From a virus: a DNA stretch of 64,000 nucleotides. The DNA lies in the IMG/VR virus record IMGVR_UViG_3300045988_159027. One strand, 5' to 3'. A program made the translations under genes and the position numbers. Shown in pieces: positions 2,978 through 33,515 of the stretch; position 1 is the first letter of the stretch; the number at the start of each line of letters is the position of its first letter. The notes beneath the pieces were generated by a model. The model saw only the letters and a list, made by a program, of their open reading frames with translations, ran no database searches and was not told where the DNA came from.

Positions 2978-3010
2978 CGCGCTTCCCTGTGAAGGGAGGT
3001 GCGTTTTTTT
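2978..3010 (+). terminator. rho-independent terminator
   Basis: CGCGCTTCCCT-gtga-AGGGAGGTGCG forms an 11-bp stem (two G-U pairs), followed by T7. Confidence 0.6.
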
Positions 3011-12076: not shown

Positions 12077-12110
12077 AACAATTTTAAACCGAAATCGCAT
12101 CAAAATTATT
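12077..12110. promoter_or_regulatory. dispersed 34-bp palindrome, site 1
   Basis: AACAATTTTAA-accgaaatcgca-TCAAAATTATT. Overlaps the leftward -7 boxes. Confidence 0.6.
12101..12108 (-). promoter_or_regulatory. -7 box TAATTTTG of the leftward early promoter
   Basis: Exact TAnnTTTG on the minus strand, about 55 nt upstream of the ATG at 12045. A second box, TATTTTTG, lies at 12077..12070. Confidence 0.5.
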
Positions 12111-12140
12111 TCTAAATTTCATAAAACCTCCGATTTTTCG

Positions 12141-12180
12141 TTTTTGTCCTTCAAACTACCGAATCAGACCGCTAACTTTG
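12141..12180 (+). promoter_or_regulatory. phage late-promoter motif, copy 2
   Basis: T5-GTCCTTCAAA (12146-12155), N17, then TAACTTTG (12173-12180). Confidence 0.55.
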
Positions 12181-12198
12181 AGGAAAAACACAAAGACT

Positions 12199-13224: not shown

Positions 13225-13265
13225 TTTTTTGTCCTTCATTCCCAGTTGTCATATACCTAACTTTG
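13225..13265 (+). promoter_or_regulatory. phage late-promoter motif, copy 3
   Basis: T6-GTCCTTCATT (13231-13240), N17, then TAACTTTG (13258-13265). Confidence 0.6.
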
Positions 13266-13284
13266 GAGTATAAAGAAACGACAA

Positions 13285-14286
13285 ATGGATACGACAAACT
13301 ACCAGATACATCTTCCGGCCCTTCCCGACAGCTGGAACCGGCTGTCGACCGAAGAGCTGGAAGAGGTGAACAGACTTTACAAGCGTAAGGAGGCTATGGC
13401 TGCGGAAGGCGACGAGGAACGTGCCGACCGCCTTTTCAAGCTGAAGTGCTTCATGCTTTTTCTCGGACTGAAAATCGTGCGGCGCACCGTGACCGATGAA
13501 AATGGTGAAACGGTGTTTCTCTTCCGGCGCAAAGGGATTCGCCACCTGTTTGAGCGCATTCCCATGCGGGCATGGCAGGTGGACCAGTGGATAGACCAGA
13601 AGCTCGGTTTCCTGGACAATCCTTTTGCACGCACCGTCACTCCCTACGGAATTATCCTCCTTCGTATGGGAACCCTTCGTCTGAAAGCACCGAAAGATGT
13701 GATGTCCGATGTCAGCTTTGCGCAGTACCAGTCCGCACAGAATCTGCTTATCATGTACTGGGATGCACAGAAGGTTCTACAGACGCTTGTAAGGCGAAAA
13801 TCGACCCATGCCGCCATCCGGATGCAGTTGCGCCGCATGAAACAGGCACGATGCCGGTTTCTGGCCACGCTGTTTAATGAATCCGTGCGCGAGACGGGAG
13901 AGATACGCGAAGGACGCTACCTGCGCAAGTGTAAGCGCCGCGTGTGGTCGTTCAACTCCGGGCAGATACAGAAAAACGCCCGCTGGTTTAGCATGGTAGA
14001 AGCCCGCATGTTCCCCGTCATGGTGCAGTATTTTCAGAGCGTGCAGGAAGCCTACGCGCGCATGTATCCGGAGCTGTTCACGCCTAACGGGAAAAAGAAC
14101 GGACGGCAGAACCCTATCAAGATAGAGGTGGAAATGATTAACAACATCATGAAGTATCAGGGATTCAGTGACTACGACGCAGTGTACGACAGCGAGGCGG
14201 TCCGCATCCTGGGAATTATGAATGCCATGGCTAAGGAAGCTAAGGAAATTGAGAAAATGAATCAGAAATACAGAAAAGGGAAATGA
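13285..14286 (+). CDS. hypothetical late protein
   Basis: 333-aa ORF that overlaps the next gene by 4 nt. Confidence 0.7.
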   Translation: MDTTNYQIHLPALPDSWNRLSTEELEEVNRLYKRKEAMAAEGDEERADRLFKLKCFMLFLGLKIVRRTVTDENGETVFLFRRKGIRHLFERIPMRAWQVDQWIDQKLGFLDNPFARTVTPYGIILLRMGTLRLKAPKDVMSDVSFAQYQSAQNLLIMYWDAQKVLQTLVRRKSTHAAIRMQLRRMKQARCRFLATLFNESVRETGEIREGRYLRKCKRRVWSFNSGQIQKNARWFSMVEARMFPVMVQYFQSVQEAYARMYPELFTPNGKKNGRQNPIKIEVEMINNIMKYQGFSDYDAVYDSEAVRILGIMNAMAKEAKEIEKMNQKYRKGK

Positions 14287-16244
14287 TAACCGATTACCAG
14301 AGTAACGCATACCGAATTTCTTACCAGGGCGTGTCCATGATAGAAAATGCACTGGAAAACCCCAACCTGATTCAGGTGGGGGTGGTTCCGGGCTGTACCA
14401 TCATGGTGGCTCCGCAGAAAAGCTACGGCATAGATTATCTGCCCAACGGAGAATACCGAAGCTGGACGCTGACGGGATACAACACCCGTCTGAACCGCAC
14501 GGAGGCACACTACATCTATGCCCGTCTGGAACGTGGTTCTGACGATGCCATGGTGCTGTTTTCCGTGAACGACTATGCTACTGACGGAAGCATCGGCGGA
14601 GAGAATCCCAGCGAAGATTTCTATTACATACGCATCGGAAGCATTACCGCCACCGACAGTCTGGAAGCTGCCACCCTCGACCGTGAAATTACACTGGACT
14701 ACGGTAAGCTTTCTACTCCTGCAGGTAATGACCAGGATGCAGTCGGATGGAAGGAACTGTTCGAACTGACCGCAGAAGGATTGATCCGTCCGCTGAAACG
14801 TTTCACTTCCTTTATTGTGCAGGGCACGCTTTCCATTATCGGGAAACTGGTTATCAACGACAAGCAGATTACGGATGTGGCACGCCAGGTAGATGATGGT
14901 AATTTTGTAGAAAGCGATGAAAATTTGCCCACAACAAAACTGTTGATGGGTAAATATCTTGATGAACTTAGGAAAAGACTTTTAAGTAAAGACCGTGAGG
15001 ACCAGACAAAATTTCTTCTCAAGTTTGGCGAGTTTATTGACAGCATGATTGCCGGAAAGGGTGCTGGTATATTCCCGGACGGTCGCGGACAGTTTGAAAA
15101 GCTGGAGGTTCGTTCATCTTTAATCGTAAAAGAACTGATATATAACCGTTGGTTCGCGCAGGAAGGTAACGTTACTTATTCAGAAGCCGGCACGATCGAA
15201 CGTATTGAACTTCTTGAAGACGGCACGTATGACCTGTATCTTCGTCGTCGCTGGGATAATGATATTACAGCGTTCAAGGAACAGGACGTTAGTTATGGCT
15301 CAGTGAATAATCTGAACTCTACAGGAGAGTATTATGACAGCTGGTTCCGCGTCCTTAGTGTGATGCAGGCAGAAAACAAACTGAATGTCGTGCTCTATCC
15401 AGATGAAGAGGTGCCTGGGGGTAAGAACTATCCTCCAGCTGTAGGTATGGTGATTACACGTCGAGGAAATGCGGTAGATGAAGAACGGCAAGGATTCTGG
15501 TATATCTCATCGTATGAGGGCTGCATCTGTATGCTGGATGGCGTAACAAAGCCCGTGCTGGAAGAATCTAATTACAGCATCATTATCGGAAAACTAAAGC
15601 GATTGGAACTGTTCGATAACCTCCCAATCAACTACCGACAGAGTTATGTGTATTGCCGTGGTATCGCTATCCAGGACTTGATGCGGATAGACTATCAGGG
15701 CGTGGTTGTTGTACAGCTTAACGACCGTGGGTTCTGGTCGCTGGAGGTTGCTCAGAGCGAGAATCCTTATAAGGTTGGAAAAGATACGGTCGATACGGTA
15801 TGGCATTACGGATGCCGGTGGAAATGCCTTGTTACAGGAACGACGGATGAACCTCGCTATGCCAGCACAGGCTGGGCGATGATTGAAGGGAATCCGGCAT
15901 TTACTATTGACATTGAAAGCGAAAACGGTTGGCAGTTTGATGGGAGTCAGCTTCAGGAAGGAGTAGTCTTTACTACCTTAACTGTAACTGGACAGCTCTA
16001 CAACCGTGACGTGACAGAAAGCATACTTGATACGGACGTGTCCTGGACACGCGATACGGGCAATGTGTCTGAAGATAATGCCTGGGCTATCAAGAGAGCG
16101 GATGCTGGTAAGTCTCTTACGCTGACAGTAGACGATTTGGGGATTGAATTTGGCCGCACGAAGACTGTTTGCACGTTCAAGGCTCGCGCCTTATTACGTG
16201 ACGGTCAGACATTCGAAGTTGCAGAGAATGAAATAACATTTTAA
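14283..16244 (+). CDS. tail fibre / baseplate-associated protein (probable)
   Basis: 653 aa, beta-rich, at the head of a run of large late genes that ends in fibre-like genes. Confidence 0.5.
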   Translation: MITDYQSNAYRISYQGVSMIENALENPNLIQVGVVPGCTIMVAPQKSYGIDYLPNGEYRSWTLTGYNTRLNRTEAHYIYARLERGSDDAMVLFSVNDYATDGSIGGENPSEDFYYIRIGSITATDSLEAATLDREITLDYGKLSTPAGNDQDAVGWKELFELTAEGLIRPLKRFTSFIVQGTLSIIGKLVINDKQITDVARQVDDGNFVESDENLPTTKLLMGKYLDELRKRLLSKDREDQTKFLLKFGEFIDSMIAGKGAGIFPDGRGQFEKLEVRSSLIVKELIYNRWFAQEGNVTYSEAGTIERIELLEDGTYDLYLRRRWDNDITAFKEQDVSYGSVNNLNSTGEYYDSWFRVLSVMQAENKLNVVLYPDEEVPGGKNYPPAVGMVITRRGNAVDEERQGFWYISSYEGCICMLDGVTKPVLEESNYSIIIGKLKRLELFDNLPINYRQSYVYCRGIAIQDLMRIDYQGVVVVQLNDRGFWSLEVAQSENPYKVGKDTVDTVWHYGCRWKCLVTGTTDEPRYASTGWAMIEGNPAFTIDIESENGWQFDGSQLQEGVVFTTLTVTGQLYNRDVTESILDTDVSWTRDTGNVSEDNAWAIKRADAGKSLTLTVDDLGIEFGRTKTVCTFKARALLRDGQTFEVAENEITF

Positions 16245-16248
16245 AGAT

Positions 16249-17409
16249 ATGATAACTACAAGAAAAAAAAGACTGGATGTGAATTATACCCCATTGCAAT
16301 GCAGTGGGGATATAGAAACCGTGGGAAGTGTACCTGACCGACAGATATACTCCGCCGACACCAAGGAATATACCCCTGACTACACGCTGACTCCACTTGT
16401 GCTGTTTCCACGTTGCAATGCAACAGATCCGGACCAGTACACCAAGTCTGGAGTGGTAAACGCTTCTCTTACCAATATGAAGTGGTATGAGATACAGGGC
16501 ACGAAGCGCACGCTGATTGATTCAGGTAATGCGAATTACGAGATAACCAACGAGGGTGATACCAAGGGGCAGATAAAAATTAAACGTAACTCTAGCGTTA
16601 CAACACCATTAGCCCTTGAGTTCTATGCTGAATACGTAGACACGCGGACAAATCAGGTATTTCCTTTCAGAATGAGTACGGTAATACCTGTATCAGATGC
16701 TACACTTCCAAGTCCAGTCATGAAACTGGACAGCCCTTCCAGCGTAATATGGAATCCGCTTCGAAATCCGTTGTCACGTACAATCAAGGCATCTGTCTTT
16801 GTAGGAGGAAGCGATATCGCATCGGATAAGCAGAAGTGCAAATTTTTCTGGTACCGAAAACTGGACACCGGATCATTGGAAGCCATTACAGATGGGAACG
16901 GAGATAATGACTGGGAAGTAGATAGTATAGACCACAATACGCTGACCATTAATCAGGATTATATTGGAGAGGAGCAGACCTATGTCTGCAAGCTGGCCTA
17001 TGCAGCAGACGGTAATTTTCCTGGATTACCATCGGACAATGCACCTGTAGTCAGTACCACCATCCGACGACGTATTCCTGATGTGGAAGCAGACTGGAAA
17101 GGAGTTCCTTCGCAGTTTCCAGGAGGTACCACTAAGTTTACTCCGGAAGCGTTTGTGATGGACGGCATGGGCATTATCCCTAATGCGGATGAATGGCTCC
17201 GGTTTGTGTGGAACGTAAAATCTCCATATTCGCAGAGTTACAGCAGACAGGCTATCGGAGTAAAGCCGACAATCACATTTATCCCTGGAATGATGCTGGA
17301 ACTGGAGGTACAGGATAGAGGGCCACAGGCAATACTGATAGATGATACGGATGGCACCGTACTGCAGGATGCTGATGGTAATGTTTTATTTGACAGAATT
17401 AATAACTAA
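16249..17409 (+). CDS. tail-associated hypothetical protein
   Basis: 386-aa beta-rich ORF. Confidence 0.6.
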   Translation: MITTRKKRLDVNYTPLQCSGDIETVGSVPDRQIYSADTKEYTPDYTLTPLVLFPRCNATDPDQYTKSGVVNASLTNMKWYEIQGTKRTLIDSGNANYEITNEGDTKGQIKIKRNSSVTTPLALEFYAEYVDTRTNQVFPFRMSTVIPVSDATLPSPVMKLDSPSSVIWNPLRNPLSRTIKASVFVGGSDIASDKQKCKFFWYRKLDTGSLEAITDGNGDNDWEVDSIDHNTLTINQDYIGEEQTYVCKLAYAADGNFPGLPSDNAPVVSTTIRRRIPDVEADWKGVPSQFPGGTTKFTPEAFVMDGMGIIPNADEWLRFVWNVKSPYSQSYSRQAIGVKPTITFIPGMMLELEVQDRGPQAILIDDTDGTVLQDADGNVLFDRINN

Positions 17410-17420
17410 TACATACGACT

Positions 17421-17741
17421 ATGGCATATTACGTAAAAGTGACAAAACAGGTGTCTGATAAGATGAATCTTACTGCAATACGCAATAAGACTGCGGATGG
17501 AAACGTGCTGCTGTGGCAGGCAGATTTAAATAGAATTGAAGGTGATACCATATTTGAACGCGCAGAGCGGATAGGCGGAAAGGCTATTACAGCTCAGGAA
17601 GCCAAGGCTGAAACAGACGGTACAGAAAATCCTTCCGAAGTATATACACCTGACGAATATAAGGAAGATACGCCTAGCGTCTTGCCGGAGATATCAAATG
17701 ACACCGTATCTACTGAAGCAGAGGAAGGAGGTACATTATGA
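17421..17741 (+). CDS. hypothetical late protein
   Basis: 106-aa ORF that overlaps the next gene by 4 nt. Confidence 0.6.
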   Translation: MAYYVKVTKQVSDKMNLTAIRNKTADGNVLLWQADLNRIEGDTIFERAERIGGKAITAQEAKAETDGTENPSEVYTPDEYKEDTPSVLPEISNDTVSTEAEEGGTL

Positions 17742-18793
17742 GTGAAGCAAGTGTATCACGGCAAGTAGTGTATGTGCGGAAAGGCAGCGTATATATGCCT
17801 TTCCTTCAGTCGAACATGGGAGACTTATATCAGGAGTACCAGGGTACAGCAGATAATCCGACAAATATCACGCCGGATTTCACTACGTTGACTCCGATGT
17901 TGAGTTACATCATCACCTCTTCTTTGGCCGCTGCCGGGATTGTGGTTCCTTCGTCAGTTAAATGGTTTTTCAATGATACGGAACTTACGTTTGGAAGCAA
18001 CAAACTTTCTACGAATACTTTTGGTGGCGAAACTGGCCATTTTGAGAACGTACCGTATTCTTCCGGAACACAAAATTATTTTGCACTGAAGATAAAGAAG
18101 AACCTGGTGAAGGCATCTGCAGGTGCTGCATGTAACATTAAAGCAGAAGCGACTATTGCAGTCGGTAATACCAGCGACAAGATACAGTGCGTGTACAGTA
18201 TACCTGTTACTGTAGGTGTGGGCAACAGTAAGCGCGTTACCATCATGGCCGGTGACAACAAGTTCTTTACACTGACTGATAAGGGAGACTCCTGTATCCT
18301 CAAGGCTGTAGCGTGGATAGGTAGCGATGAACTCAATGCTGGTCAGGCATACAAGTGGTACACGCTAAAGTCAGGTTCCTGGTCTGTGTTGGACGGGCAG
18401 ACAAAACAAAGTTTGACCGTTACCAATGATATGGTAGATACCACCGGACAATTCAAGGTCGAAGTGTACCAGAACGGAAACCTTATCGGGATGGATGTCC
18501 AGACGGTAGTAGATGCTTCTGACCCGTTCGACATTATTACCAACCCCAATCCAGAAAGCGAAACGATTGAGCAGGGAAGCGGTGGTACGGTAGTCTATAC
18601 GCCAATACTCGTCAAACGTGGAAGTACAACCAAGTACAAGGAAATGAAGTTCTACTTTGTATTCACGGACAGTGCAGGTAATATTCTTAATCCAAGTACA
18701 GCTACTACGCCATCTGCAACAGGGACCGTAACTGAAGCTATGTGTGAACAGGCATCTGGTAATGTGGCTGTATCAATAACTACGGAGGAGTAG
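17738..18793 (+). CDS. tail-associated hypothetical protein
   Basis: 351-aa beta-rich ORF. Confidence 0.6.
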   Translation: MSEASVSRQVVYVRKGSVYMPFLQSNMGDLYQEYQGTADNPTNITPDFTTLTPMLSYIITSSLAAAGIVVPSSVKWFFNDTELTFGSNKLSTNTFGGETGHFENVPYSSGTQNYFALKIKKNLVKASAGAACNIKAEATIAVGNTSDKIQCVYSIPVTVGVGNSKRVTIMAGDNKFFTLTDKGDSCILKAVAWIGSDELNAGQAYKWYTLKSGSWSVLDGQTKQSLTVTNDMVDTTGQFKVEVYQNGNLIGMDVQTVVDASDPFDIITNPNPESETIEQGSGGTVVYTPILVKRGSTTKYKEMKFYFVFTDSAGNILNPSTATTPSATGTVTEAMCEQASGNVAVSITTEE

Positions 18794-18795
18794 GT

Positions 18796-19797
18796 ATGAC
18801 ATTAGCAAGCAAAACAACTGAGGTAAAATTTCTTCAAAAAGGCCCTCAAGGGAATAAAGGGGCTAAACTTCGTATGAGAGACTGGAAGGAAGGAGAGGAG
18901 TTCCTTGCTGGTGCAGAAGGAGAAGCATATTACGATGTTGTTAATTATTTTGACAAACTTTATTTGACTATTGTGTCTCATACTGCAAAATCAGGTGTTA
19001 ATGACCCTATTACTTCAGTGTCACAGCAAAAAGGTTTTTGGGAATTAGCACAGGACTGGACATTTATTGCGACTAAACTTTTGCTTGCAGAGAAAATATC
19101 GGCCGAAGAAATTGATGCAGACGGACTTGTTGCGAAGAATGTGAATATAACTGGTAAGATATATGCAGAAGAAGGTGAACTTGGGAAAATGACAATAAAG
19201 GCTGATTCAGCAGATGATGGTTTGTTTTTAAAGGATGATACTTATGGTTCTGAAATGTCTCTAAAATCTAGGATGTTTATGAGCATCCCATATAATGTGT
19301 TTGCTGTTAATCCTGGAAGAGACCAGTCAAATGTATTGCTTTACGTAAAAAAACGTAGAGGTAATTCTTTAGACAGGGCTTTGTATGTAGATGGCGTTGC
19401 TGAAGTTTATGGCAGATTGGGCGTTGGTAGAGGTAAGGATACAGGATTTAATCAGTTCTATCCGGCGCTTGTCGCTGAGGGTATTAGCTGTTATGGTCAA
19501 TTTTGCCTTCCGATTAAAACAGTGACTTCAACTTCTTCTTTAGACTCGACTTCCAGTTATGTGGTTTTGAATTTTTCTTCTTCCGGTGGATATATACGTC
19601 TACCTTCCACCAACCTGACAGATGGACAGACTATTATTATAAGGAATATAGGTTCTAATAATGTCACGGTGTATGGTAATATGAAAAATGAAAGCAATAG
19701 TAGTATTACACAATATACATTCAGAACTGGAGGACGATTACACGTTCATACTTATTATCAGAATGGTAATTACTGGCTTGTAAACAATCTTAATTAA
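18796..19797 (+). CDS. tail fibre protein (probable)
   Basis: Has a short collagen-like KGPQGNKGAK near the N-terminus and a beta-rich C-terminus. Composition switches abruptly to AT-rich here. Confidence 0.5.
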   Translation: MTLASKTTEVKFLQKGPQGNKGAKLRMRDWKEGEEFLAGAEGEAYYDVVNYFDKLYLTIVSHTAKSGVNDPITSVSQQKGFWELAQDWTFIATKLLLAEKISAEEIDADGLVAKNVNITGKIYAEEGELGKMTIKADSADDGLFLKDDTYGSEMSLKSRMFMSIPYNVFAVNPGRDQSNVLLYVKKRRGNSLDRALYVDGVAEVYGRLGVGRGKDTGFNQFYPALVAEGISCYGQFCLPIKTVTSTSSLDSTSSYVVLNFSSSGGYIRLPSTNLTDGQTIIIRNIGSNNVTVYGNMKNESNSSITQYTFRTGGRLHVHTYYQNGNYWLVNNLN

Positions 19798-19807
19798 AAC
19801 GATAATC

Positions 19808-20074
19808 ATGAAACAAGTAGATTTTGGTAAAGTAAAAGTTCAGCTGACTTTTGAAGGTAATCCGGTTGAATTTAACATGCGTAAAGTAATAGGTAATATG
19901 ATTCGTCAGAACACTAATGATATAGGGTTAGATGAGTTTGCCAGAAAGGTATATTTTTCAGATGGCCCGGTTGAAATTCCGGATGAATATATAAAGCCTA
20001 TTTTGGGCATAGTAAAATTGAGTATGACAGTTCCAGCTCAACAAGCATTAAATGAATTATTAACAAATGAATAA
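19808..20074 (+). CDS. hypothetical protein
   Basis: 88-aa ORF in the fibre module. Confidence 0.55.
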   Translation: MKQVDFGKVKVQLTFEGNPVEFNMRKVIGNMIRQNTNDIGLDEFARKVYFSDGPVEIPDEYIKPILGIVKLSMTVPAQQALNELLTNE

Positions 20075-20085
20075 AATTTAAAATT

Positions 20086-20577
20086 ATGATACAGAAAAAA
20101 TCTTTAAAAGAAGCTATACAAAATCCGGAGATAATATCAGTTGTGGGAGGACTACTGCCAACCGCGACTCAAAGTTCTTCAGGAATTATGTCTGCAGCTA
20201 TGGCTAAAAGAATTTTCCAAGTGTATTATCAGCAAAGCAATTCATCTACCAAAATTTACAAACTGACTCCCAGTACCGGATTTGACGTATCTAAATTATA
20301 TATCTTTACAGATGTAGGTTCTTTGTCTGAGTATGTAATTCATAAGAACTTTGTTCATGAAATCATTTCTCCTATATCTGAGGTGTATTTTGTCATTGAT
20401 TTTTATCAAAATTCAGATGGAGATATATTTGTAAGAGTTCAATCAAAATCATTCGGAATAACAGTTTCATTCCACGTCGTTATTCCGGGATTCAATGGAA
20501 TCTCAACATCATTTTCTTTCACTGAAGTAAGTATTGATATTTCAGGATTAAACAGAATAGAACCTAAAAAAGTTTGA
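20086..20577 (+). CDS. tail-module protein with a switchable C-terminus (expressed orientation)
   Basis: 163-aa ORF. Codons 18-23 (SVVGGL) are the left inverted repeat. Confidence 0.7.
   Translation: MIQKKSLKEAIQNPEIISVVGGLLPTATQSSSGIMSAAMAKRIFQVYYQQSNSSTKIYKLTPSTGFDVSKLYIFTDVGSLSEYVIHKNFVHEIISPISEVYFVIDFYQNSDGDIFVRVQSKSFGITVSFHVVIPGFNGISTSFSFTEVSIDISGLNRIEPKKV
20137..20153. repeat. inverted repeat, left arm (TCAGTTGTGGGAGGACT)
   Basis: Perfect reverse complement of 21067-21083. Confidence 0.9.
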
Positions 20578-20657
20578 CATGTTTCTATCCCATTGACAGG
20601 CCCGCGGGAGGAGTAAGTTTACTTACCGCTTGATGGAATGATACTATATTTTTATAC

Positions 20658-21077
20658 TTAAAAGCTCAATGGTACTGCATCATCTGGAACAGTATCAACA
20701 TCTTCAATTTCAGAAGGAACCCCTTTTATTAGGGGGCTAATGTCAATTCTTAGATAAGCATTAGTGGTAACATAGACACTGATATTACTATTGGATTCTA
20801 TTTTATACAATAAGGATACAGCACCAGGCTTTTCACCACATAATTGTGACGCGTATACTCTTGTTATGTTCCATTTTACCGCAAGTAGATTAACTGTGGA
20901 CATTTTCCCATCAACCCCTATAAAATGTAATATACAAGAAAAAACGTGGTTTACATCTGTAGTTTTTATCGTAATTTTTGCCTTTCCATTGTCCTTTTTA
21001 TTGTATGTGTAATCAGATCTTTGCCTGTGCATTAGACCTTCCTTTTCAGGATTTGCTATCCCAATCAGTCCTCCCAC
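20658..21077 (-). CDS. silent alternative C-terminal cassette
   Basis: No ATG upstream of the repeat and an in-frame TGA at 21116..21114. Begins GGLIGIANPEKEGLM..., a diverged homologue of residues 21-163 of the plus-strand gene. Confidence 0.6.
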   Translation of the reverse strand: MGGLIGIANPEKEGLMHRQRSDYTYNKKDNGKAKITIKTTDVNHVFSCILHFIGVDGKMSTVNLLAVKWNITRVYASQLCGEKPGAVSLLYKIESNSNISVYVTTNAYLRIDISPLIKGVPSEIEDVDTVPDDAVPLSF

Positions 21078-21083
21078 AACTGA
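21067..21083. repeat. inverted repeat, right arm (AGTCCTCCCACAACTGA)
   Basis: Perfect reverse complement of 20137-20153. Confidence 0.9.
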
Positions 21084-21091
21084 ACAAAAGG

Positions 21092-21120
21092 AAAGTGAAG
21101 ATAAAAATAATCTTCACTTT
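21092..21120 (-). terminator. hairpin after the recombinase gene
   Basis: AAAGTGAAGA / TCTTCACTTT forms a 10-bp perfect stem 14 nt past the stop. Confidence 0.55.
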
Positions 21121-21133
21121 TCTTATTTTCTAA

Positions 21134-22273
21134 TTAAATAGACAGTTGTCGTATCAGAGTGCTTTCACTTGTCTGTGCATATACCATTGTCATTTTTAAG
21201 CTTCTATGACCTATTACCTTTTGTATTGTAGTAACAGGAACATCTTTGTTTACAAGTCTTGACGCACAAGTATGTCGAGCCACATGAGCTGAAACATTCT
21301 TATCTATACCTGCATGTTTTATAGCAGTTTTTAATCTGGCATTGAACAATTCCTTTTTTATACCGAAAAAATCATCAAGCCTGTAAAGATATTTATTTAT
21401 TATCTGCTCTGCTCTTCCGTCGAATATAGAAGAAATAGGTATCCTAACGCCTGTATTTGTCTTTATGGAAGTATAGGTAAGCCACATTTTCCCATTTTCT
21501 ATGGTGAAATTTTTCGGGGAGAATGAAGCAAAGTCTGATATTCTTGCTCCGGTGTAAGCCATAAAAAGGAATCTGTCAAGTGTAACAATGAATCGTGATG
21601 GAGTGTCGGTACGTGCTATGTAATTTTCAATTTTACGAATATCATCGTCAGTTAGCGACTTCATTTTATATTTCAGACGGTCTGAAAGTTTTTCATGATA
21701 AAAGTCGAAACTACCGGAAGGGACCTTGTTGCCAAACAATTTCCTGGCAATATTATAATAACACCTAAGCACATGTATCTGCATACCTATTGTAGTTTGA
21801 TTCAGACCGGCTTCACGCATATAGCGTATAAATCCCTTTGCATAATCTTCCGTAATATCGGAAACTGAACATTCTTTACAGAATTTCCTGAGATGCTTTA
21901 GCACACGTCGGTGTATTCCTTTTGTTCCTTCGCGAATATCGCGGTGTTCTATCTGATATTCCATCATCGAATAGAAGTCATTAGATGACTCACGCCCATC
22001 CCATATTTCCTTCAGCTTTGAAAGTGTAAACTCTCCGTCGTAATCAAGCTCATACTCTTCAAGCTGATAAAGCGTTTTACGGATAAACAGATTAAGTTTC
22101 CTTGCATGTGGGTTACGGATAATAAGCCCGTTTTCACCATCCCATTCATCGTGAAACACATGTACGTTTGTATCAATTAAGATACTTTTACCGAACTGTT
22201 CGCAGCGCACATATACGCTGAACATACCTGAATCAAATTCTTTGACGCAGATAGAATACTTGATTTTGTTCAT
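21134..22273 (-). CDS. tyrosine site-specific recombinase (candidate invertase and/or integrase)
   Basis: 379 aa. Motifs AYTGARISD, HVARHTCAS and GHRSLKMTMVYAQ supply the R, HxxR, H and Y residues. Has a Bacteroidales integrase-type N-terminal arm-like domain. Confidence 0.9.
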   Translation of the reverse strand: MNKIKYSICVKEFDSGMFSVYVRCEQFGKSILIDTNVHVFHDEWDGENGLIIRNPHARKLNLFIRKTLYQLEEYELDYDGEFTLSKLKEIWDGRESSNDFYSMMEYQIEHRDIREGTKGIHRRVLKHLRKFCKECSVSDITEDYAKGFIRYMREAGLNQTTIGMQIHVLRCYYNIARKLFGNKVPSGSFDFYHEKLSDRLKYKMKSLTDDDIRKIENYIARTDTPSRFIVTLDRFLFMAYTGARISDFASFSPKNFTIENGKMWLTYTSIKTNTGVRIPISSIFDGRAEQIINKYLYRLDDFFGIKKELFNARLKTAIKHAGIDKNVSAHVARHTCASRLVNKDVPVTTIQKVIGHRSLKMTMVYAQTSESTLIRQLSI

Positions 22274-22529
22274 AGAAGGTTTGTTTTATTTGGCTTGAAG
22301 GGCGGAGCAAAGTGTTGCACATCCGTCCTTCTTTTTATTGTTTTAAAGTGTAAATAAGCATTCAATTGTCAAAAAAACATACCCGTTTTATTCGGATATA
22401 AATATTTTTTGTAATTTAGCAGCGTGATAGGGAAAACAGGGATTCCCTTCTTCGATGAGAGTTTTATCAACACAGAAAGGAGACAAGCGATTGCCTCCTT
22501 TTTTGTTTTTGTCTGCCGAGAAACCGTCG

Positions 22530-22572
22530 TTTTTTTTGTCCTTCATTCTCCAATGTGCTCTTCGTAACTTTG
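22530..22572 (+). promoter_or_regulatory. phage late-promoter motif, copy 4
   Basis: T8-GTCCTTCATT (22538-22547), N17, then TAACTTTG (22565-22572). Confidence 0.6.
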
Positions 22573-22615
22573 TATTGCAACTAAAACCAAATGTTTAACT
22601 AAAAACGACGACAAA

Positions 22616-23014
22616 ATGAAAAAGATGATTTTAATGTTTGCAATGCTGATCTCTGCAGTGACCGTTTTCGCACAGGGAGCTGTAACCTCTGAACCTTCTA
22701 CTGCCGGATTTGTAATCGACCTGGGCACGTTTACCGGAATCGTAGCACTTATTTCGGCCATCGTGACACAGATCCTAAAAGTCATTCCTGCCATTTCAGA
22801 AAGCAAGTTCGCAAAAATCGGTGTGAGCGTGGCGGTAGGTATGGTGGTGTGCGTGCTGGCATGGGCGCTTCAGCTTACTCCTCTGCTCGAAGGATACCAA
22901 TGGTGGGGAACGCTTATTTACGGACTGGCTGCCGGCCTTAGCGGATGCGGTTTCTACGATGTGGTAAAAGCTATTGCCGCTCTTTTTAAGGATAATACGG
23001 AAGAGATGGAATAA
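22616..23014 (+). CDS. holin-like membrane protein
   Basis: 132 aa with an N-terminal signal-like helix plus three hydrophobic helices. First gene of the operon that contains the amidase. Confidence 0.45.
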   Translation: MKKMILMFAMLISAVTVFAQGAVTSEPSTAGFVIDLGTFTGIVALISAIVTQILKVIPAISESKFAKIGVSVAVGMVVCVLAWALQLTPLLEGYQWWGTLIYGLAAGLSGCGFYDVVKAIAALFKDNTEEME

Positions 23015-23038
23015 CGGGAAATCGGAAGGAGGCACGGA

Positions 23039-23671
23039 ATGGACGCAGAAATGGTGACGGCCATAAGCGCAGCTGTAGTTTCCGTGGGTACCTTTATTCT
23101 TACTCAGTACAATAAAATGACGCAGAAGTATCGTGACAAGATGAACGATATGAAGTTGGAACGGTACAAGCAGGAAACCGAACGTCTTAGCTTCAAGCGA
23201 AGCGAGAATACGGCAAAGGTATTCGGCGAACTGTGGAAGGTGCTCTACGAGACAAAGGCCGACAGGGTGTACATCGTACAGCCGCACCCGCTGGGTAACG
23301 CAGCCTTCCTTTCCATCTATTTCGAAGTGAAACGCAAGGGGGTGTCGGGCATGAAGGACAATGTGCAGCGGCTCCCCATGAGCGAAATGGCAGTATTCAG
23401 CAGAGGACTGGCCGAAAACCTTTTTCTCTGCTATACGGATATAGACTCTCAAGTGAAGGACAAGATGGCCAAATCCCTGTTTATAACCAATGGCTGTCGC
23501 GCCGTAGCCATAAAGAGGCTGAACAGCGCTTCCGACTGGGTAGGAAACATCTTCTGCGAGTTTACCGACGAAATGGAGGTAAGTGAGGAACAAACCCACA
23601 AGGTGCTGCACGATGCAGCGGTGAACATACAGTTCATTCTTCCGGAATACCGGGAGAATCCCTATAAATAG
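23039..23671 (+). CDS. membrane-anchored hypothetical protein
   Basis: One N-terminal TM helix (VTAISAAVVSVGTFILT) followed by a soluble domain. Confidence 0.6.
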   Translation: MDAEMVTAISAAVVSVGTFILTQYNKMTQKYRDKMNDMKLERYKQETERLSFKRSENTAKVFGELWKVLYETKADRVYIVQPHPLGNAAFLSIYFEVKRKGVSGMKDNVQRLPMSEMAVFSRGLAENLFLCYTDIDSQVKDKMAKSLFITNGCRAVAIKRLNSASDWVGNIFCEFTDEMEVSEEQTHKVLHDAAVNIQFILPEYRENPYK

Positions 23672-23700
23672 AGTTACAAACCAAAAACACAACACAAACA

Positions 23701-24276
23701 ATGGACGAAATCAGTTTTAAGAAGGGAGCTGAAGGCTATGTGGCCGAATATACTTCCGAAGGACGTACAATGGTGCAGATTCAGGGTGTGAAAATCGGAA
23801 GGCTTTCAATCTCCCAGTTTATTGACTCCATGGAACCCGTCGCAATGGATACGGTGAATTTCACAAATTCAGTAATTGAAATCAATGTACCTGCCGGCAT
23901 GAAGGTACGGCTTCTGAGCGATGTGGAGGTGAAAAAAGTCAAGGCATTGGTCATCAAGGATACCGCAGCAGCCGGCGGTGGCGGAGGAGGTGAAAGCTAT
24001 GTGCTCCCGAAAGCCAGCGACTCTGCTTTGGGAGGAATCCAGACCGGATTTTCAGAAAGCGGAAAGAACTATGCTGTAAGAGTAGACGGAGCAGGTAAAG
24101 CGTATGTCACGGTAAACTGGACAGACACCACATATACCAATGCTACAACAGGAAAGCCCGGGATTGTAAAACAGGGTGCCCATGTAACAGATGCTACAGG
24201 TTCGGAAGATGCACATACCGTACTGAACAAGCTGATTGACGAGCTTGAAAAGGCCGGGGTTCTGGCTTCTGCATAA
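23701..24276 (+). CDS. fibre-like decoration protein (head-fibre / tail-fibre repeat type)
   Basis: Has a G6 linker, then YVLPKASDSALGGIQ and the tail ...VLNKLIDELEKAGVLASA. Both are recalled as typical of phage fibre proteins. Confidence 0.35.
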   Translation: MDEISFKKGAEGYVAEYTSEGRTMVQIQGVKIGRLSISQFIDSMEPVAMDTVNFTNSVIEINVPAGMKVRLLSDVEVKKVKALVIKDTAAAGGGGGGESYVLPKASDSALGGIQTGFSESGKNYAVRVDGAGKAYVTVNWTDTTYTNATTGKPGIVKQGAHVTDATGSEDAHTVLNKLIDELEKAGVLASA

Positions 24277-24312
24277 CCACAGTCACAACACACAAACTAA
24301 ACTAGACACGAC

Positions 24313-24885
24313 ATGAGAATCTGGATTGATAACGGTCATGGTGCAGACACCAATGGGAAGCAGTCGCCCGACGGACGGTTGCGTGAATATGCCTATGCAC
24401 GCGACATTGCACGCCGTGTGGTGGATGCGCTGAAGAAGAAAGGGCTCGACGCGCAGCTGCTCGTTCCGGAAGAGGAAGACATTTCGCTTCAGGAACGGTG
24501 CGCACGCGCCAACCGGGTGAAAGACAGCATCCTGGTATCCGTCCATTGTAACGCTGCCGGAAGCGGCACGCAGTGGATGACCGCACGCGGATGGGAGGCA
24601 TGGACCAGCGTAGGTCAGACCAAGGCCGACAAACTGGCCGAATGTCTGTATCAGAGTGCGGAGCAGGTGCTGAAAGGCATGAAGATTCGCAAGGACACCG
24701 CCGACGGCGACAGCGACAAGGAAAGCGGTTTCTACATTCTGAAGCATACCATTTGCCCGGTCGTGCTGACTGAAAACCTTTTCCAGGACAATCGCGAAGA
24801 TGTGGACTTCCTTCTGTCGGATGAAGGCCGCCAGAAGATTGTCACGCTGCATGTGCAGGGAATCTGTAAATACCTGGGCGTATGA
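24313..24885 (+). CDS. N-acetylmuramoyl-L-alanine amidase (Amidase_3-type endolysin)
   Basis: Motifs MRIWIDNGHG, VSVHCNAAG and VLTENLFQDN. Confidence 0.85.
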   Translation: MRIWIDNGHGADTNGKQSPDGRLREYAYARDIARRVVDALKKKGLDAQLLVPEEEDISLQERCARANRVKDSILVSVHCNAAGSGTQWMTARGWEAWTSVGQTKADKLAECLYQSAEQVLKGMKIRKDTADGDSDKESGFYILKHTICPVVLTENLFQDNREDVDFLLSDEGRQKIVTLHVQGICKYLGV

Positions 24886-25436
24886 AACAGCTTCCGTGGA
24901 TACTGGTAGGCTTGCTGTCGGCCGCGCTCCTCTTTTCGCTTTTCTTCCGTGGATGCGCATCGCCGCAGTCTGGGAAGGGTGATACCGTATGGCTTCCCGT
25001 CAGGGTAGATACGATACGCGACACGGCAGTTGCTCCTCCCGTGTCAGAACGTCCCGCAGGAACAGACACCGCACGCCTTCCGGTATATCGTCCGCAGAAA
25101 CCGTCCGGGTCAGCTTCCATCCCGGACAGCATAGCGGATACGGTTACGGTTGTTTCTGATTCGCTTTCTACAGGGAAAGACAGCGTGGACGTGATTATTC
25201 CTCTCACAGAGAAGGAATACCGCACGGACGACTACCGGATAGTCATTTCAGGGTATCGCCCGCAACTGGTGTCGGCAGAGTTTTACCGACGCACACAGAC
25301 GGGGGTGGTAAATGCACCGGCACCGAAAAAGAAGAGGTGGGGGATAGGACTGAGCGCCGGATACGGGATAGGGCTTTCAGGGAAGACAGAACCGTTTCTG
25401 GGCGTTACGCTTAATTACAACCTGCTGCAATGGTAG
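24882..25436 (+). CDS. membrane/lipoprotein-like lysis accessory candidate
   Basis: Has an N-terminal signal helix ending FFRGC. The C-terminal GIGLSAGYGIGLSG...LNYNLLQW is beta-strand-like. Overlaps the amidase stop by 4 nt. Confidence 0.3.
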   Translation: MKQLPWILVGLLSAALLFSLFFRGCASPQSGKGDTVWLPVRVDTIRDTAVAPPVSERPAGTDTARLPVYRPQKPSGSASIPDSIADTVTVVSDSLSTGKDSVDVIIPLTEKEYRTDDYRIVISGYRPQLVSAEFYRRTQTGVVNAPAPKKKRWGIGLSAGYGIGLSGKTEPFLGVTLNYNLLQW

Positions 25437-25503
25437 CGGCAGGTTGTTTATTTAAACACAAGAGAAAAACACAGGGCAGACGTGCCCGATAAACAAAGAA
25501 ACG

Positions 25504-25809
25504 ATGAGTAAGAGTGAGATTTTTAACACCATCCTCCGCATGGTATCGGAGGAAACGGAAATACCGTCTGCACAGATCCTTTCCGGAAGGAAGGACACAG
25601 AAACGGTAGATGCACGCTATCTGCTGGTGCATTTCCTTTTTCAGAGCGGATTGAATCCGTCGTATATCGCTGCACGAATCGGAAAGACGGAGCGTGCCGT
25701 CAACCAGATTCATACCAATTTCGACCAGCGTTTCAGCACACAGAAAATATTCAGAATAAGTTGCGAAAGAATCAGGAAGAGGTTAGGAAATAACTCATTC
25801 CCAGAGTAA
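25504..25809 (+). CDS. DnaA-C-terminal-like helix-turn-helix protein
   Basis: ILSGRKDTETVDARYLLVHFLFQSGLNPSYIAARIGKTERAVNQ matches the Bac_DnaA_C pattern (recalled). Confidence 0.45.
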   Translation: MSKSEIFNTILRMVSEETEIPSAQILSGRKDTETVDARYLLVHFLFQSGLNPSYIAARIGKTERAVNQIHTNFDQRFSTQKIFRISCERIRKRLGNNSFPE

Positions 25810-25873
25810 TGCTTCGTCCGTACCTTTGTCATGTCGGGAAATAGTTCACGACACAACACAAACACAAAACAGT

Positions 25874-26386
25874 ATGACAATCAAAGGTATGGATGGCCAG
25901 AGTTACAACGTAACCGGCCAGGGACAAGGTAATTTCAACACGGTGGGGGCTGCAGCCGGCATCGCATCATTTTTGGGTATCAACGGTGGTAACATCCTGG
26001 GTCGCAATGGCTGGGGATGGAACGCAGAAGGCGTATGCTCAGACAACATGCCCGTAAGCCGTTATGAGTTGAACATGGTGGAACAACTGAACGCAAAGGA
26101 TTCAGAAATCGCTTTGCTGAAGGCTGACAAGTACACTGACCAGAAGATCGTGGAAGCCTATAAGGACTTGCAGGGTCAGATCAAGGAACTTTCAGTGGAA
26201 GTTCGCTCCAACAAGGACGCTCAGACCGCTGTCAACATGCAGCAGGCCGTTTACAACGGTACCAACACCGCTGCTCTGCAGTGTATGCAGAACAGCATCG
26301 CCGCTTTGCAGGCTATCACCAAGACATACATTCCGTCAAGCAATGTATGTCAGTCTGACTGCTGCGGATGTGTATCTGCTCAGTAA
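25874..26386 (+). CDS. hypothetical late protein (Gly-rich N-terminus, coiled coil, C-terminal CQSDCCGC)
   Basis: ATG follows a CA-rich leader. A -7 box TACCTTTG lies at 25821-25828. Confidence 0.65.
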   Translation: MTIKGMDGQSYNVTGQGQGNFNTVGAAAGIASFLGINGGNILGRNGWGWNAEGVCSDNMPVSRYELNMVEQLNAKDSEIALLKADKYTDQKIVEAYKDLQGQIKELSVEVRSNKDAQTAVNMQQAVYNGTNTAALQCMQNSIAALQAITKTYIPSSNVCQSDCCGCVSAQ

Positions 26387-26476
26387 TCAACTGCTGAAAT
26401 CCGGGGGAGGGCATCGGCCTTCCCCTTTCCCTTATGATTTTCATACTCTACACAAACAACTCAAACACGCAGCACA

Positions 26477-26974
26477 ATGACAAACGCACAGATTCTGACC
26501 GCTGTCATCCTGAAATGGGGTGAGCCGGTCATTCCGGTTATGATGGGCAATACGCTCAACGGTATTTCTGCCGGTATGCTTCCGGTGGAGAAGTTATTCA
26601 AGTCAATCGGACTGGCAGGTCCCGGATGGCAGATTTCCAATGAAATCAATTCGCTGGCATCTTTAGGAGGGACAAAAATGATCCGTCCGTTCCTCGAACG
26701 ATTTGTATCCCGCATTCCGGACGACATGATCCCGGAACTGGCTCACGGATATGTTGACTCTGCCATCCAGCAGGGAAAGCTTTCCATAATCGACGGATTT
26801 TTCACCTTCGACCGCAATGACCTGGTGGAACTGAAGAAATACCTGGACTGCAACCTTCCGTATCAGAAACCCGAGGAATATGTGGTGAAGGTTCCGCAGC
26901 AGCCCGCACAGCCGTCGCACCCACAACCGCAGCCTGCACCAAAGAATGAAACACGAGAAAAAGAAGAGAAATAA
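26477..26974 (+). CDS. hypothetical late protein with a P/Q-rich tail
   Basis: 165-aa ORF behind a CA-rich leader. Confidence 0.65.
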   Translation: MTNAQILTAVILKWGEPVIPVMMGNTLNGISAGMLPVEKLFKSIGLAGPGWQISNEINSLASLGGTKMIRPFLERFVSRIPDDMIPELAHGYVDSAIQQGKLSIIDGFFTFDRNDLVELKKYLDCNLPYQKPEEYVVKVPQQPAQPSHPQPQPAPKNETREKEEK

Positions 26975-27035
26975 GTGCCGAATACAGGCGGCCTGGTGTC
27001 CTGTAAAAGATATATAACACAAACACAACACAACT

Positions 27036-27452
27036 ATGATTCAGTCAATTACTTTGTCTGGAGTTCCGACAGCTACCGCTCAGCCACTGACGGTAAACAT
27101 CACTAAGAAACTGCGTCAGGCTTATTGCGTGAACAACGGCGTTCAACCTACTGCTACCGTCGTATTCAGTGTAGCAAGCGTCACAAACAACAACACGCAG
27201 AACATTGCGCTTATCAACGCAGCTGTAACTCTGACCTACACTCCGAAAAACGGATGTGCAGCAAAGACTATTCAGTGGACCGAACAGTTTACAGTAACCT
27301 TCATCGGTGCGGCAAATACAGCCCCTACCAGTGTGGTAGCTACAACTTTAGTTCCGCAGGTATTCTCTTACAATGAGAACGGTTGCGGTTGCTCTGCTTG
27401 CGGCGCACTGATTGCAGTCCCGGTCACGATTACTGCTACCTTTCCCGCTTAA
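27036..27452 (+). CDS. small beta-rich late protein
   Basis: 138-aa T/V/A-rich ORF behind a CA-rich leader. Confidence 0.65.
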   Translation: MIQSITLSGVPTATAQPLTVNITKKLRQAYCVNNGVQPTATVVFSVASVTNNNTQNIALINAAVTLTYTPKNGCAAKTIQWTEQFTVTFIGAANTAPTSVVATTLVPQVFSYNENGCGCSACGALIAVPVTITATFPA

Positions 27453-27601
27453 CGAAGTTCAGGCAGCCGCGTTTAGCGCTTTCAGTCTGGCATCTGCCGA
27501 TGAACCCGTAAAAAAGCGAAGGAAAAGGAAAAATGTTTGAGTGGCTTCCCGTCCGCGAGGGCGGGAAGTTTTTGAAGAAACTAATTTAAAAATATCGAGA
27601 T

Positions 27602-28150
27602 ATGGATAGAGAACAAATGATCTCCCGTTACGAGGAGCTGTATGATAAGATGAAGGACAGCAAGGACGTGAAGAATATGAAAATATTCGGCGAAGCTGCT
27701 ACCTATTATTTCAAGGAAATCGCAAAGATGCATCCGGAAATGGCTATGAGCTGGCTGAGCCACCTCGAAGCAATGTGCTGGGATAATTTTTTGTCGGAAA
27801 CAGAGGCCGTGAATATCGGTAAGACCATGGTCAACGAAGATGGGTTGAAAGGATTCCACTGGGGGCATGACACTTTCGTGTCTGCCGTGAAACAACTCGG
27901 AGGAGTTCCCGAAGAAAAACCTTCGTACAACTCGTATGCACTTTGTGTCACAGCCAACATGATTTACAGCGACATGGCATACAGCATCGCTGAAGACATG
28001 GGATACAAGACACCTGCCGAAGTGCCGAACGAAAAGATGGCCCTTTCATGCTACAAGAAAGCTGTGTCCTACCTGAAAGACAAGGACAAGAACTTTCAGG
28101 TGCGCCGTTACTTCAAGAAGCGCATGTACGGAGAGCAGGCAGCCATGTAA
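27602..28150 (+). CDS. hypothetical protein
   Basis: 182-aa ORF. Confidence 0.65.
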   Translation: MDREQMISRYEELYDKMKDSKDVKNMKIFGEAATYYFKEIAKMHPEMAMSWLSHLEAMCWDNFLSETEAVNIGKTMVNEDGLKGFHWGHDTFVSAVKQLGGVPEEKPSYNSYALCVTANMIYSDMAYSIAEDMGYKTPAEVPNEKMALSCYKKAVSYLKDKDKNFQVRRYFKKRMYGEQAAM

Positions 28151-28307
28151 CAGCCGCATAGAAGAAAAGCTGGACCTCCTTATACGTATGGTAGCTCAAC
28201 TTGACGGGATAAGAGGATTTGGCTCTAATGTGCTGGCAAATGTGGTGGGCGATATAATTATGAGAAAAAGATGATGTAGTTTGTCTTTCCACCCTATATG
28301 AATGAAA

Positions 28308-28351
28308 ATGCAGCCGGGTTTTGTCGTTTCTTCCCCGGCTGCATTGTTTTT
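28308..28351. terminator. bidirectional terminator
   Basis: ATGCAGCCGGG / CCCGGCTGCAT forms an 11-bp perfect stem followed by a T-run. It lies between convergent genes. Confidence 0.75.
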
Positions 28352-28370
28352 TAATTATCAGTAAATTATA

Positions 28371-33473: not shown

Positions 33474-33515
33474 TTTTTTTGTCCTTCATTTTGCTTTTTA
33501 CGATAGGTAACTTTG
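33474..33515 (+). promoter_or_regulatory. phage late-promoter motif, copy 5
   Basis: T7-GTCCTTCATT (33481-33490), N17, then TAACTTTG (33508-33515). Confidence 0.6.

Follow-up and report, generated by a model that had tools for sequence, protein, structure and literature searches.

A minimal, shufflon-like invertible segment at the end of a phage tail gene block occurs in both orientations in public sequence data

We analysed a 64,000-nucleotide (nt) stretch of viral DNA (IMG/VR record IMGVR_UViG_3300045988_159027; the whole stretch is called the window here), in which the last gene of a plus-strand tail block, open reading frame (ORF) 20086-20577, runs into a segment that an earlier note, made from the DNA letters alone, had proposed to be invertible. 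The segment is bounded by TCAGTTGTGGGAGGACT, a 17-nt perfect inverted repeat at 20137-20153 (+) and 21067-21083 (-), located by that note and the sole pair in the 64 kb. The 17-mer has only two matches in the window even with up to two mismatches, no further site-like sequence appears at that threshold, and shuffles of the window that preserve dinucleotides give an expectation of 0 chance matches. The left copy spells codons 18-23 (S-V-V-G-G-L) of ORF 20086-20577, which encodes 163 amino acids (aa), and the right copy lies in identical codon phase in the convergent minus-strand ORF 20658-21077 (139 aa), both as the note had read them. The earliest possible start codon of this second ORF is a GTG at 21077, within the repeat itself, while 5' of the right copy there are ten sense codons (RLFLSSLSFC) and then an in-frame TGA at 21116-21114. 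The note had called this copy a silent cassette for its lack of an ATG and its upstream TGA, and we find that the ten codons contain no GTG or TTG either.

Between the right repeat and the stop codon of the adjacent recombinase gene lies a terminator-like hairpin (21120-21092, -), and terminal flanks like that of the window (TCTTCACTTT) are also present in the contigs L008, L045 and L053. The earlier note had placed another small hairpin between the two cassettes; the palindrome exists (GTAAGT-tt-ACTTAC, 20613-20626), but it has a 6-bp stem and a 2-nt loop and was not picked up by a terminator scan. The GC content at 19-22 kb is 0.33-0.37 compared with 0.44-0.52 upstream, in agreement with the AT-richness noticed before. 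After inversion the leader would be joined to the second cassette in a 158-aa protein, and the 163-aa and 158-aa isoforms have residues 1-23 in common. With only two sites, one segment and two variants, this layout is the minimal form of a shufflon. Coordinates are collected in Table 1.

Table 1. Features of the invertible segment and its surroundings, in positions of the window.
Feature	Position	Strand	Remarks
Constant leader: start codon and codons 1-17 (MIQKKSLKEAIQNPEII)	20086..20136	+	outside the invertible segment
Left recombination site, encodes S-V-V-G-G-L	20137..20153	+	core GTGGGAGGACT at 20143-20153; left inversion breakpoint
Cassette A, expressed in the window orientation	20154..20577	+	residues 24-163 and stop codon of the 163-aa isoform
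Spacer between the convergent 3' ends of the cassettes	20578..20657	.	contains palindrome GTAAGTTTACTTAC at 20613-20626
Cassette B, silent in the window orientation	20658..21066	-	residues 24-158 of the other isoform after inversion
Right recombination site, inverted 17-mer	21067..21083	-	core at 21067-21077; right inversion breakpoint
Terminal flank with TGA 21116-21114 and hairpin 21120-21092	21084..21133	-	directly after the recombinase stop codon
Tyrosine recombinase, 379 aa, putative invertase	21134..22273	-	ends 50 nt from the right repeat
Promoter-like element TTTGTCCTTCA-N19-TAACTTTG	13228..13265	+	ahead of the tail block that ends with the variable gene

Using the hypothetical fusion of the leader to cassette B as query, we searched a collection of 5.8 billion proteins, and the best match was a 158-aa protein (P0001) that is 99% identical over 100% of the query, which bears out the fusion product predicted in the earlier note. 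The contig that encodes it, L063 (Logan, SRR23754936, 43.5 kb), has the gene order of the window, and BLASTN aligned the two in three blocks: L063 1-8068 with window 12086-20153 (99.3%), L063 8052-8998 with window 21083-20137 in reverse (99.8%, 947 nt, 0 gaps), and L063 8982-16269 with window 21067-28356 (98.1%). These blocks overlap by exactly the 17-nt repeats, which places both inversion breakpoints inside the repeats. L063 is thus a natural flipped state, and the alignment of related phage genomes, a check that the earlier note had named, yields both orientations. Inversion of the 947-bp segment does occur in nature, as the earlier note had proposed, and both states are present in public data.

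The two states are also recovered more widely. Eleven public contigs from several samples encode isoform A exactly (163 aa), and cassette B (at ≥90% identity) occurs as the 158-aa leader fusion on 14 contigs and as a silent ORF of 139 or 124 aa on 17. Furthermore, a MEGAHIT k127 contig of 1057 nt from the human gut metagenome ERR1190573 (L073) shows 100% identity to window 21193-20137. It reaches as far as the outer edge of the left repeat, and the inner edge of the right one is where its first 127-mer ends. Paths of a de Bruijn graph branch at repeats, and contig ends of this kind indicate that both orientations are present within that sample, by the indirect route of the assembly graph and not by read counts. 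We place the probability that 20137-21083 is a site-specifically invertible segment, a phage shufflon in its one-segment, two-cassette form, at about 0.88.

Examination of other IMG/VR contigs showed that the site is not confined to this phage. The exact 17-mer is present in 60 contigs, and in 57 of them it lies in frame behind one of a few short leaders (MIQKKSLK[DE]AIQNPEII; METIDFNEVIRDPETI; MIQKKKFSDAIAANI; ...DASGNPILISKEDLA); in two of the remainder, L011 and L053, a recombinase terminator flank precedes it, and the copy in L041 is apparently there by chance. The sequences 3' of the 17-mer are coding and differ greatly among contigs. What all copies share, silent ones included, is the 11-nt core GTGGGAGGACT with G or A at position 8, the exact A-variant GTGGGAGAACT being present in L010, L022, L040, L045 and L070. 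Many loci contain 3-8 cores, mostly in alternating orientation and with back-to-back sites separated by ~40-nt spacers (eight cores in L057, six each in L022 and L059, five each in L037 and L038), and these are, to judge from their site layout, multi-segment shufflons. Some neighbouring sites in L040 (10250+, 10732+, 11203+), L022, L059 and L070 (10900-, 11405-) have the same orientation, where recombination would delete and not invert the DNA between them unless the enzyme forbids it.

The 131 sites counted comprise at least 78 types of cassette and 54 of flank; 14 cassettes occur on more than one left flank, and the junction is always at the core. One cassette (VGGL-LSCVRYSYV) is fused to a leader in L003, L018, L037 and L056 and lies behind three different silent flanks in L038, L044 and L057, and for another (LGLEFVKREDI) the active state is seen in L023, L044 and L057 and the silent one in L038. 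In IMG/VR at least 20 cassettes are joined to the MIQKKSLK leader alone, a figure that also stands for the leader at 20086-20136 in the window, which is seen with different cassettes in many protein clusters too. Contigs also end at these loci: 25 of 59 IMG/VR contigs end within 100 nt past the leader site (mode 44 nt) and 40 of the 59 end within 1 kb of it, often at another site. Assemblies of these phages break systematically at the shufflon.

These data bear on whether the repeat is a site at all, or just a conserved coding motif (SVVGGL) of two paralogues between which a single rare homologous or illegitimate recombination took place, with no programmed switch. SVVGGL does resemble motifs of other fibre-like proteins, such as SALGGI in ORF 23701-24276, and a single long contig of the exact phage was retrieved in the flipped state. 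However, the synonymous positions of the 17-mer are all identical across otherwise unrelated leaders and cassettes; a site conserved at nucleotide level between unrelated flanks rules out simple conservation of a protein motif. A repeat of 17 nt is also far too short for efficient RecA-type recombination, cassette B is fused and silent on about equal numbers of contigs, and contigs break exactly at the sites. In addition, many cassettes are found on several flanks with the core always at the junction, a recombinase is always adjacent to the site, and the silent copy has no start codon and a stop codon ahead of it. The rare-event explanation is already largely refuted and we give it next to no weight.

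ORF 23701-24276 (+, 191 aa), in the lysis-side block, encodes SDSALGGIQTGF and contains site-like DNA (TCTGCTTTGGGAGGAAT) at 24022 that has four mismatches to the site and recurs identically in L034. This is probably a related fibre-type coding motif and not a recombination site.

The variable gene is the last in the plus-strand block 13285-20577, after two phrog_3267 'tail protein' genes and other ORFs of the tail module, and neither isoform matches any family in Pfam, PHROG or NCBIfam. The earlier note had described the two C-termini as diverged homologues of similar length. Their lengths are indeed similar, but past residue ~35 the sequences show no homology: BLASTP finds similarity in the first ~40 residues only, and although hhalign on the full alignments of the two isoforms gave 99.9% probability, this is because of the shared leader and fell to at most 23% in profile-profile comparison after the 35 shared residues were trimmed. 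We therefore rejected homology of cassettes A and B at sequence level. The likeness that remains is in length, predicted beta-sandwich architecture and overlapping weak fold matches.

AlphaFold2 models from shallow alignments were of medium confidence for both isoforms (predicted local distance difference test, pLDDT, 75.6 and 74.5; predicted template modelling score, pTM, 0.66), and each began with ~35 helical, poorly defined residues and continued as a beta-sandwich of 9-10 strands. Structure prediction of both fusion proteins had been suggested before, and both models resemble distal domains of tail fibres or tailspikes. Isoform B had 18 BFVD matches at E ≤ 1e-3, mostly to uncharacterized or unnamed proteins, and all five with a functional name are tail fibres or tailspikes. 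Matches in the PDB were weak (E ~1e-3 to 1e-2) and overlapped for the two isoforms, comprising WceF and tailspike C-terminal domains, T4 gp9, Fri1 gp49 and galectin- or carbohydrate-binding-module-like sandwiches. A homologue with the shared leader is named 'putative tail fiber protein' by one source.

From these models the variable domain is likely to be a distal receptor-binding domain, anchored to the virion by the short constant N-terminus. The inversion could be real and the switched protein still be something else, such as a chaperone of fibre assembly, a decoration protein or one that counters host defence, as its small size (158-163 aa), lack of family matches and weak fold matches would allow, and the invertible segment of phage Mu also holds the assembly chaperone genes U and U'. 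We think this improbable, given that the gene closes the tail operon directly after the two phrog_3267 genes, that every functionally named BFVD match is a fibre or tailspike, and that its leader-sharing homologue bears a tail fibre name. Likewise, carbohydrate-binding tail fibre is the annotation given to its counterpart in the BV01-like phages of Phocaeicola vulgatus, and many cassettes of the family have a fibre-type N/S-G-L-M-S-like motif ~10 residues after the site. The receptor-binding domain remains our preferred assignment.

The gene beside the right site, ORF 21134-22273 (-), matches Pfam Phage_integrase (1.5e-22, positions 2-169 of 172), Phage_int_SAM_5 and Arm-DNA-bind_5 (28.2 bits against a cut-off of 22.6), which confirms the tyrosine recombinase that had been noticed 50 bp to the right of the segment. 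The catalytic residues R..K..HxxR..H..Y are kept, with the motifs GARISD, SIKT, HVARHT and GH..MVY in an alignment of all clades. Searches with Pfam, PHROG and NCBIfam returned tyrosine-recombinase families only and no resolvase-type serine recombinase domain, no Tsr0667-family or other invertase model of NCBIfam scored above cut-off, and a hidden Markov model built from all clades found no second tyrosine recombinase in the 64-kb window.

In each of the 15 related loci long enough to show it, a homologous recombinase adjoins the terminal site, at a distance of 46-60 nt in most and up to ~330 nt in three with partial matches. By identity to the window enzyme, three clades are seen, at 99-100% (L008, L045, L053), ~50% (L011, L019) and ~31-32% (L010, L038, L044, L050, L051, L057). 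Three further contigs (L070, L071, L072) share the tail-module synteny and leader of the window and have two recombinases each. The inner one (383 aa), beside the terminal site, is 50% identical to that of the window and 96% to that of L019, while the outer one (389 aa) is only 23% identical to the window enzyme. In L071 (204 kb) the 389-aa gene is followed by host genes (FeoB, ferredoxin-type), and in L070 by phage genes. That the outer gene abuts host genes in L071 identifies it as the integrase and the inner one as a separate shufflon-associated enzyme, and the same two-recombinase split is seen for another clade in a Phocaeicola coprophilus genome (L069).

The recombinase is flanked by tail genes (left) and lysis genes (right) in the window, L063, L066 and L067, and a host junction beside a window-type recombinase was not seen, a statement that holds for the contigs seen and not for a complete genome. 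The separate integrase at the host junction in relatives makes it likely that the window enzyme is a dedicated invertase, and from its adjacency to the site and from these relatives we infer this to be its most likely role. The other possibility is that it is the phage integrase, either only that or the invertase as well, with inversion performed by another enzyme or the same one. Its domains are of integrase type (Arm-DNA-bind_5, SAM_5 and the catalytic domain), its PHROG matches are all 'integrase', and the window has no other tyrosine recombinase. Furthermore, in phage BS-TP2 an annotated 'integrase' occupies a similar region, after the tail module and directly before the holin gene, ~2.3 kb and three small genes past the last tail gene, and is 31% identical to the window enzyme and 74% to the shufflon-adjacent recombinases of the L010 clade.

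In L070, L071 and L072, however, a 50%-clade enzyme is at the shufflon and the other recombinase at the phage-host junction, with L069 likewise, and in the window, L063, L066 and L067 there are phage genes on both sides of the recombinase. A recombinase stands beside the terminal site across three recombinase clades, and with the ParA-like partition protein of the window integration may not be needed. An integrase is accordingly a distinctly unlikely identity for the enzyme, and the dedicated invertase is the reading that we carry forward.

Among isolates, similarity to the window tail genes was detected only in the temperate phage BS-TP2 (67% over part of them). Its small last tail gene, gp85 (L061 8725-9195), is homologous to the variable gene of the window, and its integrase region corresponds to L062 1708-3000. 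We rejected BS-TP2 as a shufflon carrier, as gp85 encodes LEEL where the window has VGGL and the phage has zero core sites, and its terminal 141-nt repeat as an att site, this being circular overlap. Another candidate, L065, was considered as a host junction beside the recombinase and was rejected as a different phage module with a putative DNA-binding-type ORF. When L065 5186-5710 is compared with window 22274-22620, a different insert is seen directly upstream of the recombinase, with a 99-aa unannotated ORF, and the rest is 99.4% identical; from its sequence the insert is another mosaic boundary adjoining the module. The IMG/VR contig L011 (5588 nt) carries a leaderless two-cassette segment between a 50%-type recombinase on the left and a 32%-type recombinase on the right, and could have arisen by recombination of one shufflon with another or by chimeric assembly.

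Several points weigh against reading the locus as a programmed receptor switch driven by its neighbouring recombinase. The within-sample evidence for both orientations is assembly-graph behaviour and not mapped reads, and bears only indirectly on switching within a single clone or lysogen. The receptor-binding role is drawn from models of medium confidence, weak fold matches and zero family matches. The recombinase has an integrase-like domain make-up with an arm-binding domain match, a protein 74% identical to a sister clade of the enzyme is annotated 'integrase' in BS-TP2, a phage without core sites, and its tie to the inversion comes from sequence and not from experiment. Lastly, a scan of GTDB genomes with the recombinase gave an irrelevant Patescibacteria match only, and the host was not found.

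The layout can be read from the sequence, and a mechanism that would accommodate the findings follows from it. The start codon and first 17 codons of the gene lie fixed outside the segment, with codons 18-23 supplied by the site itself, and the segment provides two convergent C-terminal cassettes that are promoterless and without start codons. In the window orientation, cassette A is read on the leader and cassette B lies silent behind an in-frame stop and the recombinase terminator, the TGA and hairpin of the terminal flank keeping it untranslated and shielded from read-through. The adjacent tyrosine recombinase would pair the inverted sites and exchange strands within the shared 11-17 nt. 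The 947-bp flip itself, seen in a natural genome, fuses the leader to cassette B. The sites appear to be asymmetric: their cassette side, with the core, is conserved, and the outer arm varies, apart from TCAGTT, which is kept in the window clade and the 50% clade only. Such asymmetry would favour inversion, as for the sfx sites of R64. Switching in a carried state, as a prophage or plasmid-like element, would yield mixed progeny, and the two tips would recognise different host surface structures. The most likely role of the system is a receptor-specificity switch with which the phage population hedges against variable Bacteroidales surfaces.

Analysis of the surrounding backbone revealed a promoter-like element, TTTGTCCTTCA-N19-TAACTTTG, in four exact copies (12143-12180, 13228-13265, 22535-22572 and 33478-33515) where none is expected by chance, each ahead of a late plus-strand gene block (tail, lysis or tape measure), with weaker copies near 3005 and 62545. 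Bacteroidetes promoters have the form -33 TTTG / -7 TAnnTTTG, and the element fits this with an extended upstream box. Directly upstream of 20086 there is no such element, and the copy at 13228 probably drives the whole tail operon, variable gene included. The element may be read by the sigma-like protein of the phage (ORF 44375-45010, Sigma70_r4/GerE match).

At the other end of the window, the ParA-like partition gene (1374-2186, -; phrog_164, 1.6e-67) adjoins a stretch at 2257-2684 with a GC content of 0.27 and arrays of 8- and 24-nt repeats (ATAAAAGA units). The 1374-2684 region looks like a partition or iteron region of the kind found on plasmids, which suggests that the prophage is plasmid-like. 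Public contigs of the same phage reach ~109-111 kb. With megablast there was no match for 17700-23700 and 28001-53000 among 50,697 phage records, a set that lacks BV01, nor for window 1-25000 among plasmids, nor for the L010 shufflon region in the phage collection.

The variable gene and segment also appear to be mobile. An ENA scaffold of 1295 nt (L068) is 99.5% identical to window 20072-21093 over the variable gene and segment, and its flanks differ on both sides, with another upstream gene and another hairpin after the right site. We considered L068 as a chimera with both junctions and rejected this, as it is the same module in a different backbone, and from this comparison the 1-kb module seems to move between phage backbones. 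Likewise, L002 and L033 have one cassette start in common, without a difference in the 45 nt compared, behind leaders of two different families (MIQKKSLK... and METIDFNEV...), and a cassette that is active in L004 is silent in L019, a phage with another leader type. Both cases point to cassettes being shared at the common site by different lineages.

The in-frame core GTGGGAGGACT (V-G-G-L) serves three invertase clades (31-50% identical) and at least four families of leaders. A bolder proposal is that this core is a common 'socket' of many otherwise unrelated gut Bacteroidales phages, through which receptor-binding cassettes are not only shuffled within a genome but also traded between co-resident phages by site-specific recombination in trans. 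The cassettes shared by L002 and L033 and by L004 and L019, the L068 module and the two-clade segment of L011 are hints in this direction, and we hold the proposal as speculative and on balance doubtful. If true, it would amount to a communal, integron-like pool of host-range modules.

Bacteroidales phase-vary their capsules and surface proteins, and how phages respond is a practical question in gut phage ecology and phage therapy. The locus would be a clean two-state counter-measure on the phage side, with both states in public data, a site of 11-17 nt and a candidate dedicated invertase, and it offers a simple system for orientation locking and the study of host range. In addition, the routine breaking of contigs at the site matters for virome assembly and host prediction.

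Among known systems, the carbohydrate-binding tail-fibre gene of the BV01-like (Salyersviridae) phages of Phocaeicola vulgatus ends distally in an active shufflon of several cassettes, flanked by a recombinase, which has a directional 10-bp motif, TGGGAGAACT, and three cassettes giving six variants in 1.7 kb, with all configurations seen in reads (Research Square preprint, 16 Sep 2026, PMC13596623). The core is the same, written TGGGAGAACT there and GTGGGAGGACT in the window, and the window core fits TGGGAG(A/G)ACT at both leader/flank-cassette junctions; TGGGAGAACT is the A-variant of the core and stands verbatim in L010, L022, L040, L045 and L070, which places the window in this family. Both systems also have the site in the tail-fibre frame, cassettes that provide alternative C-termini with their own stops, a flanking recombinase and a gut Bacteroidales host group. 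The window differs in having one segment and two variants where the BV01-like shufflon has several cassettes, in a repeat whose identity extends to 17 nt, and in a recombinase gene that converges on the tail gene and whose product has only ~31% identity to the clade of the multi-segment arrays (L010, L057). Its backbone is without nucleotide similarity to anything in the phage collection, of which BV01 is not part.

In Bifidobacterium prophages, the Rin shufflon uses a tyrosine-family invertase, XerD-like and without an arm-type DNA-binding domain, on an 11-bp rix site (TTCCCTAACCC) with five cassettes (Sci Rep 2018, PMC6109161). Rin is the precedent for a phage tyrosine invertase that shuffles receptor-binding C-termini. 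It shares with the window a phage-encoded tyrosine invertase, a short asymmetric 11-bp site before each cassette and the swapping of a receptor-binding C-terminus, and differs in the site itself (rix compared with GTGGGAGGACT), in host phylum and in the Arm-DNA-bind_5 match of the window enzyme. The family was thus already described, by the BV01-like preprint and for Rin, which the earlier note could not know.

The note's own comparison, with Mu G, P1 C and R64, was right as an analogy. The shufflon of R64 and other IncI plasmids has four segments in pilV, inverted by the tyrosine recombinase Rci at asymmetric 19-bp sfx sites that have one conserved arm and a GTGCCAA core. As in the window, its segments hold two convergent partial ORFs that are fused to a constant N-terminal part, and a surface specificity is switched; its target, however, is a conjugative pilus adhesin, the sfx sequence is unrelated, and the window enzyme matches no specific NCBIfam model above cut-off. 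In Mu (Gin/G), P1 (Cin/C) and p15B (Min) the recombinases are serine enzymes that depend on a Fis-bound enhancer. Their logic is the same, an invertible segment that ends a tail-fibre gene and gives alternative C-termini and host ranges, whereas the window enzyme is of tyrosine type and no chaperone gene lies inside the window segment.

A systematic survey has placed tail-fibre genes among the targets of programmed inversion. The Tsr invertases and the SusC/SusD or lipoprotein shufflons of Bacteroides occur in the host order of the window and likewise rely on tyrosine recombinases, which there invert promoters or coding segments for surface molecules, but their targets are surface proteins of the host and not of a phage, and no Tsr0667 model matched the window enzyme above cut-off. 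A full-text literature search for the site sequence returned unrelated primer matches only. The locus is a new, minimal two-cassette member, with a divergent invertase, of a kind already known, and is not categorically new. What it adds is a family that extends well beyond BV01-like phages (60 IMG/VR contigs, at least 78 cassette types and three invertase clades), an invertase that appears separable from the integrase in relatives, and cassettes and a whole module that recur in different backbones.

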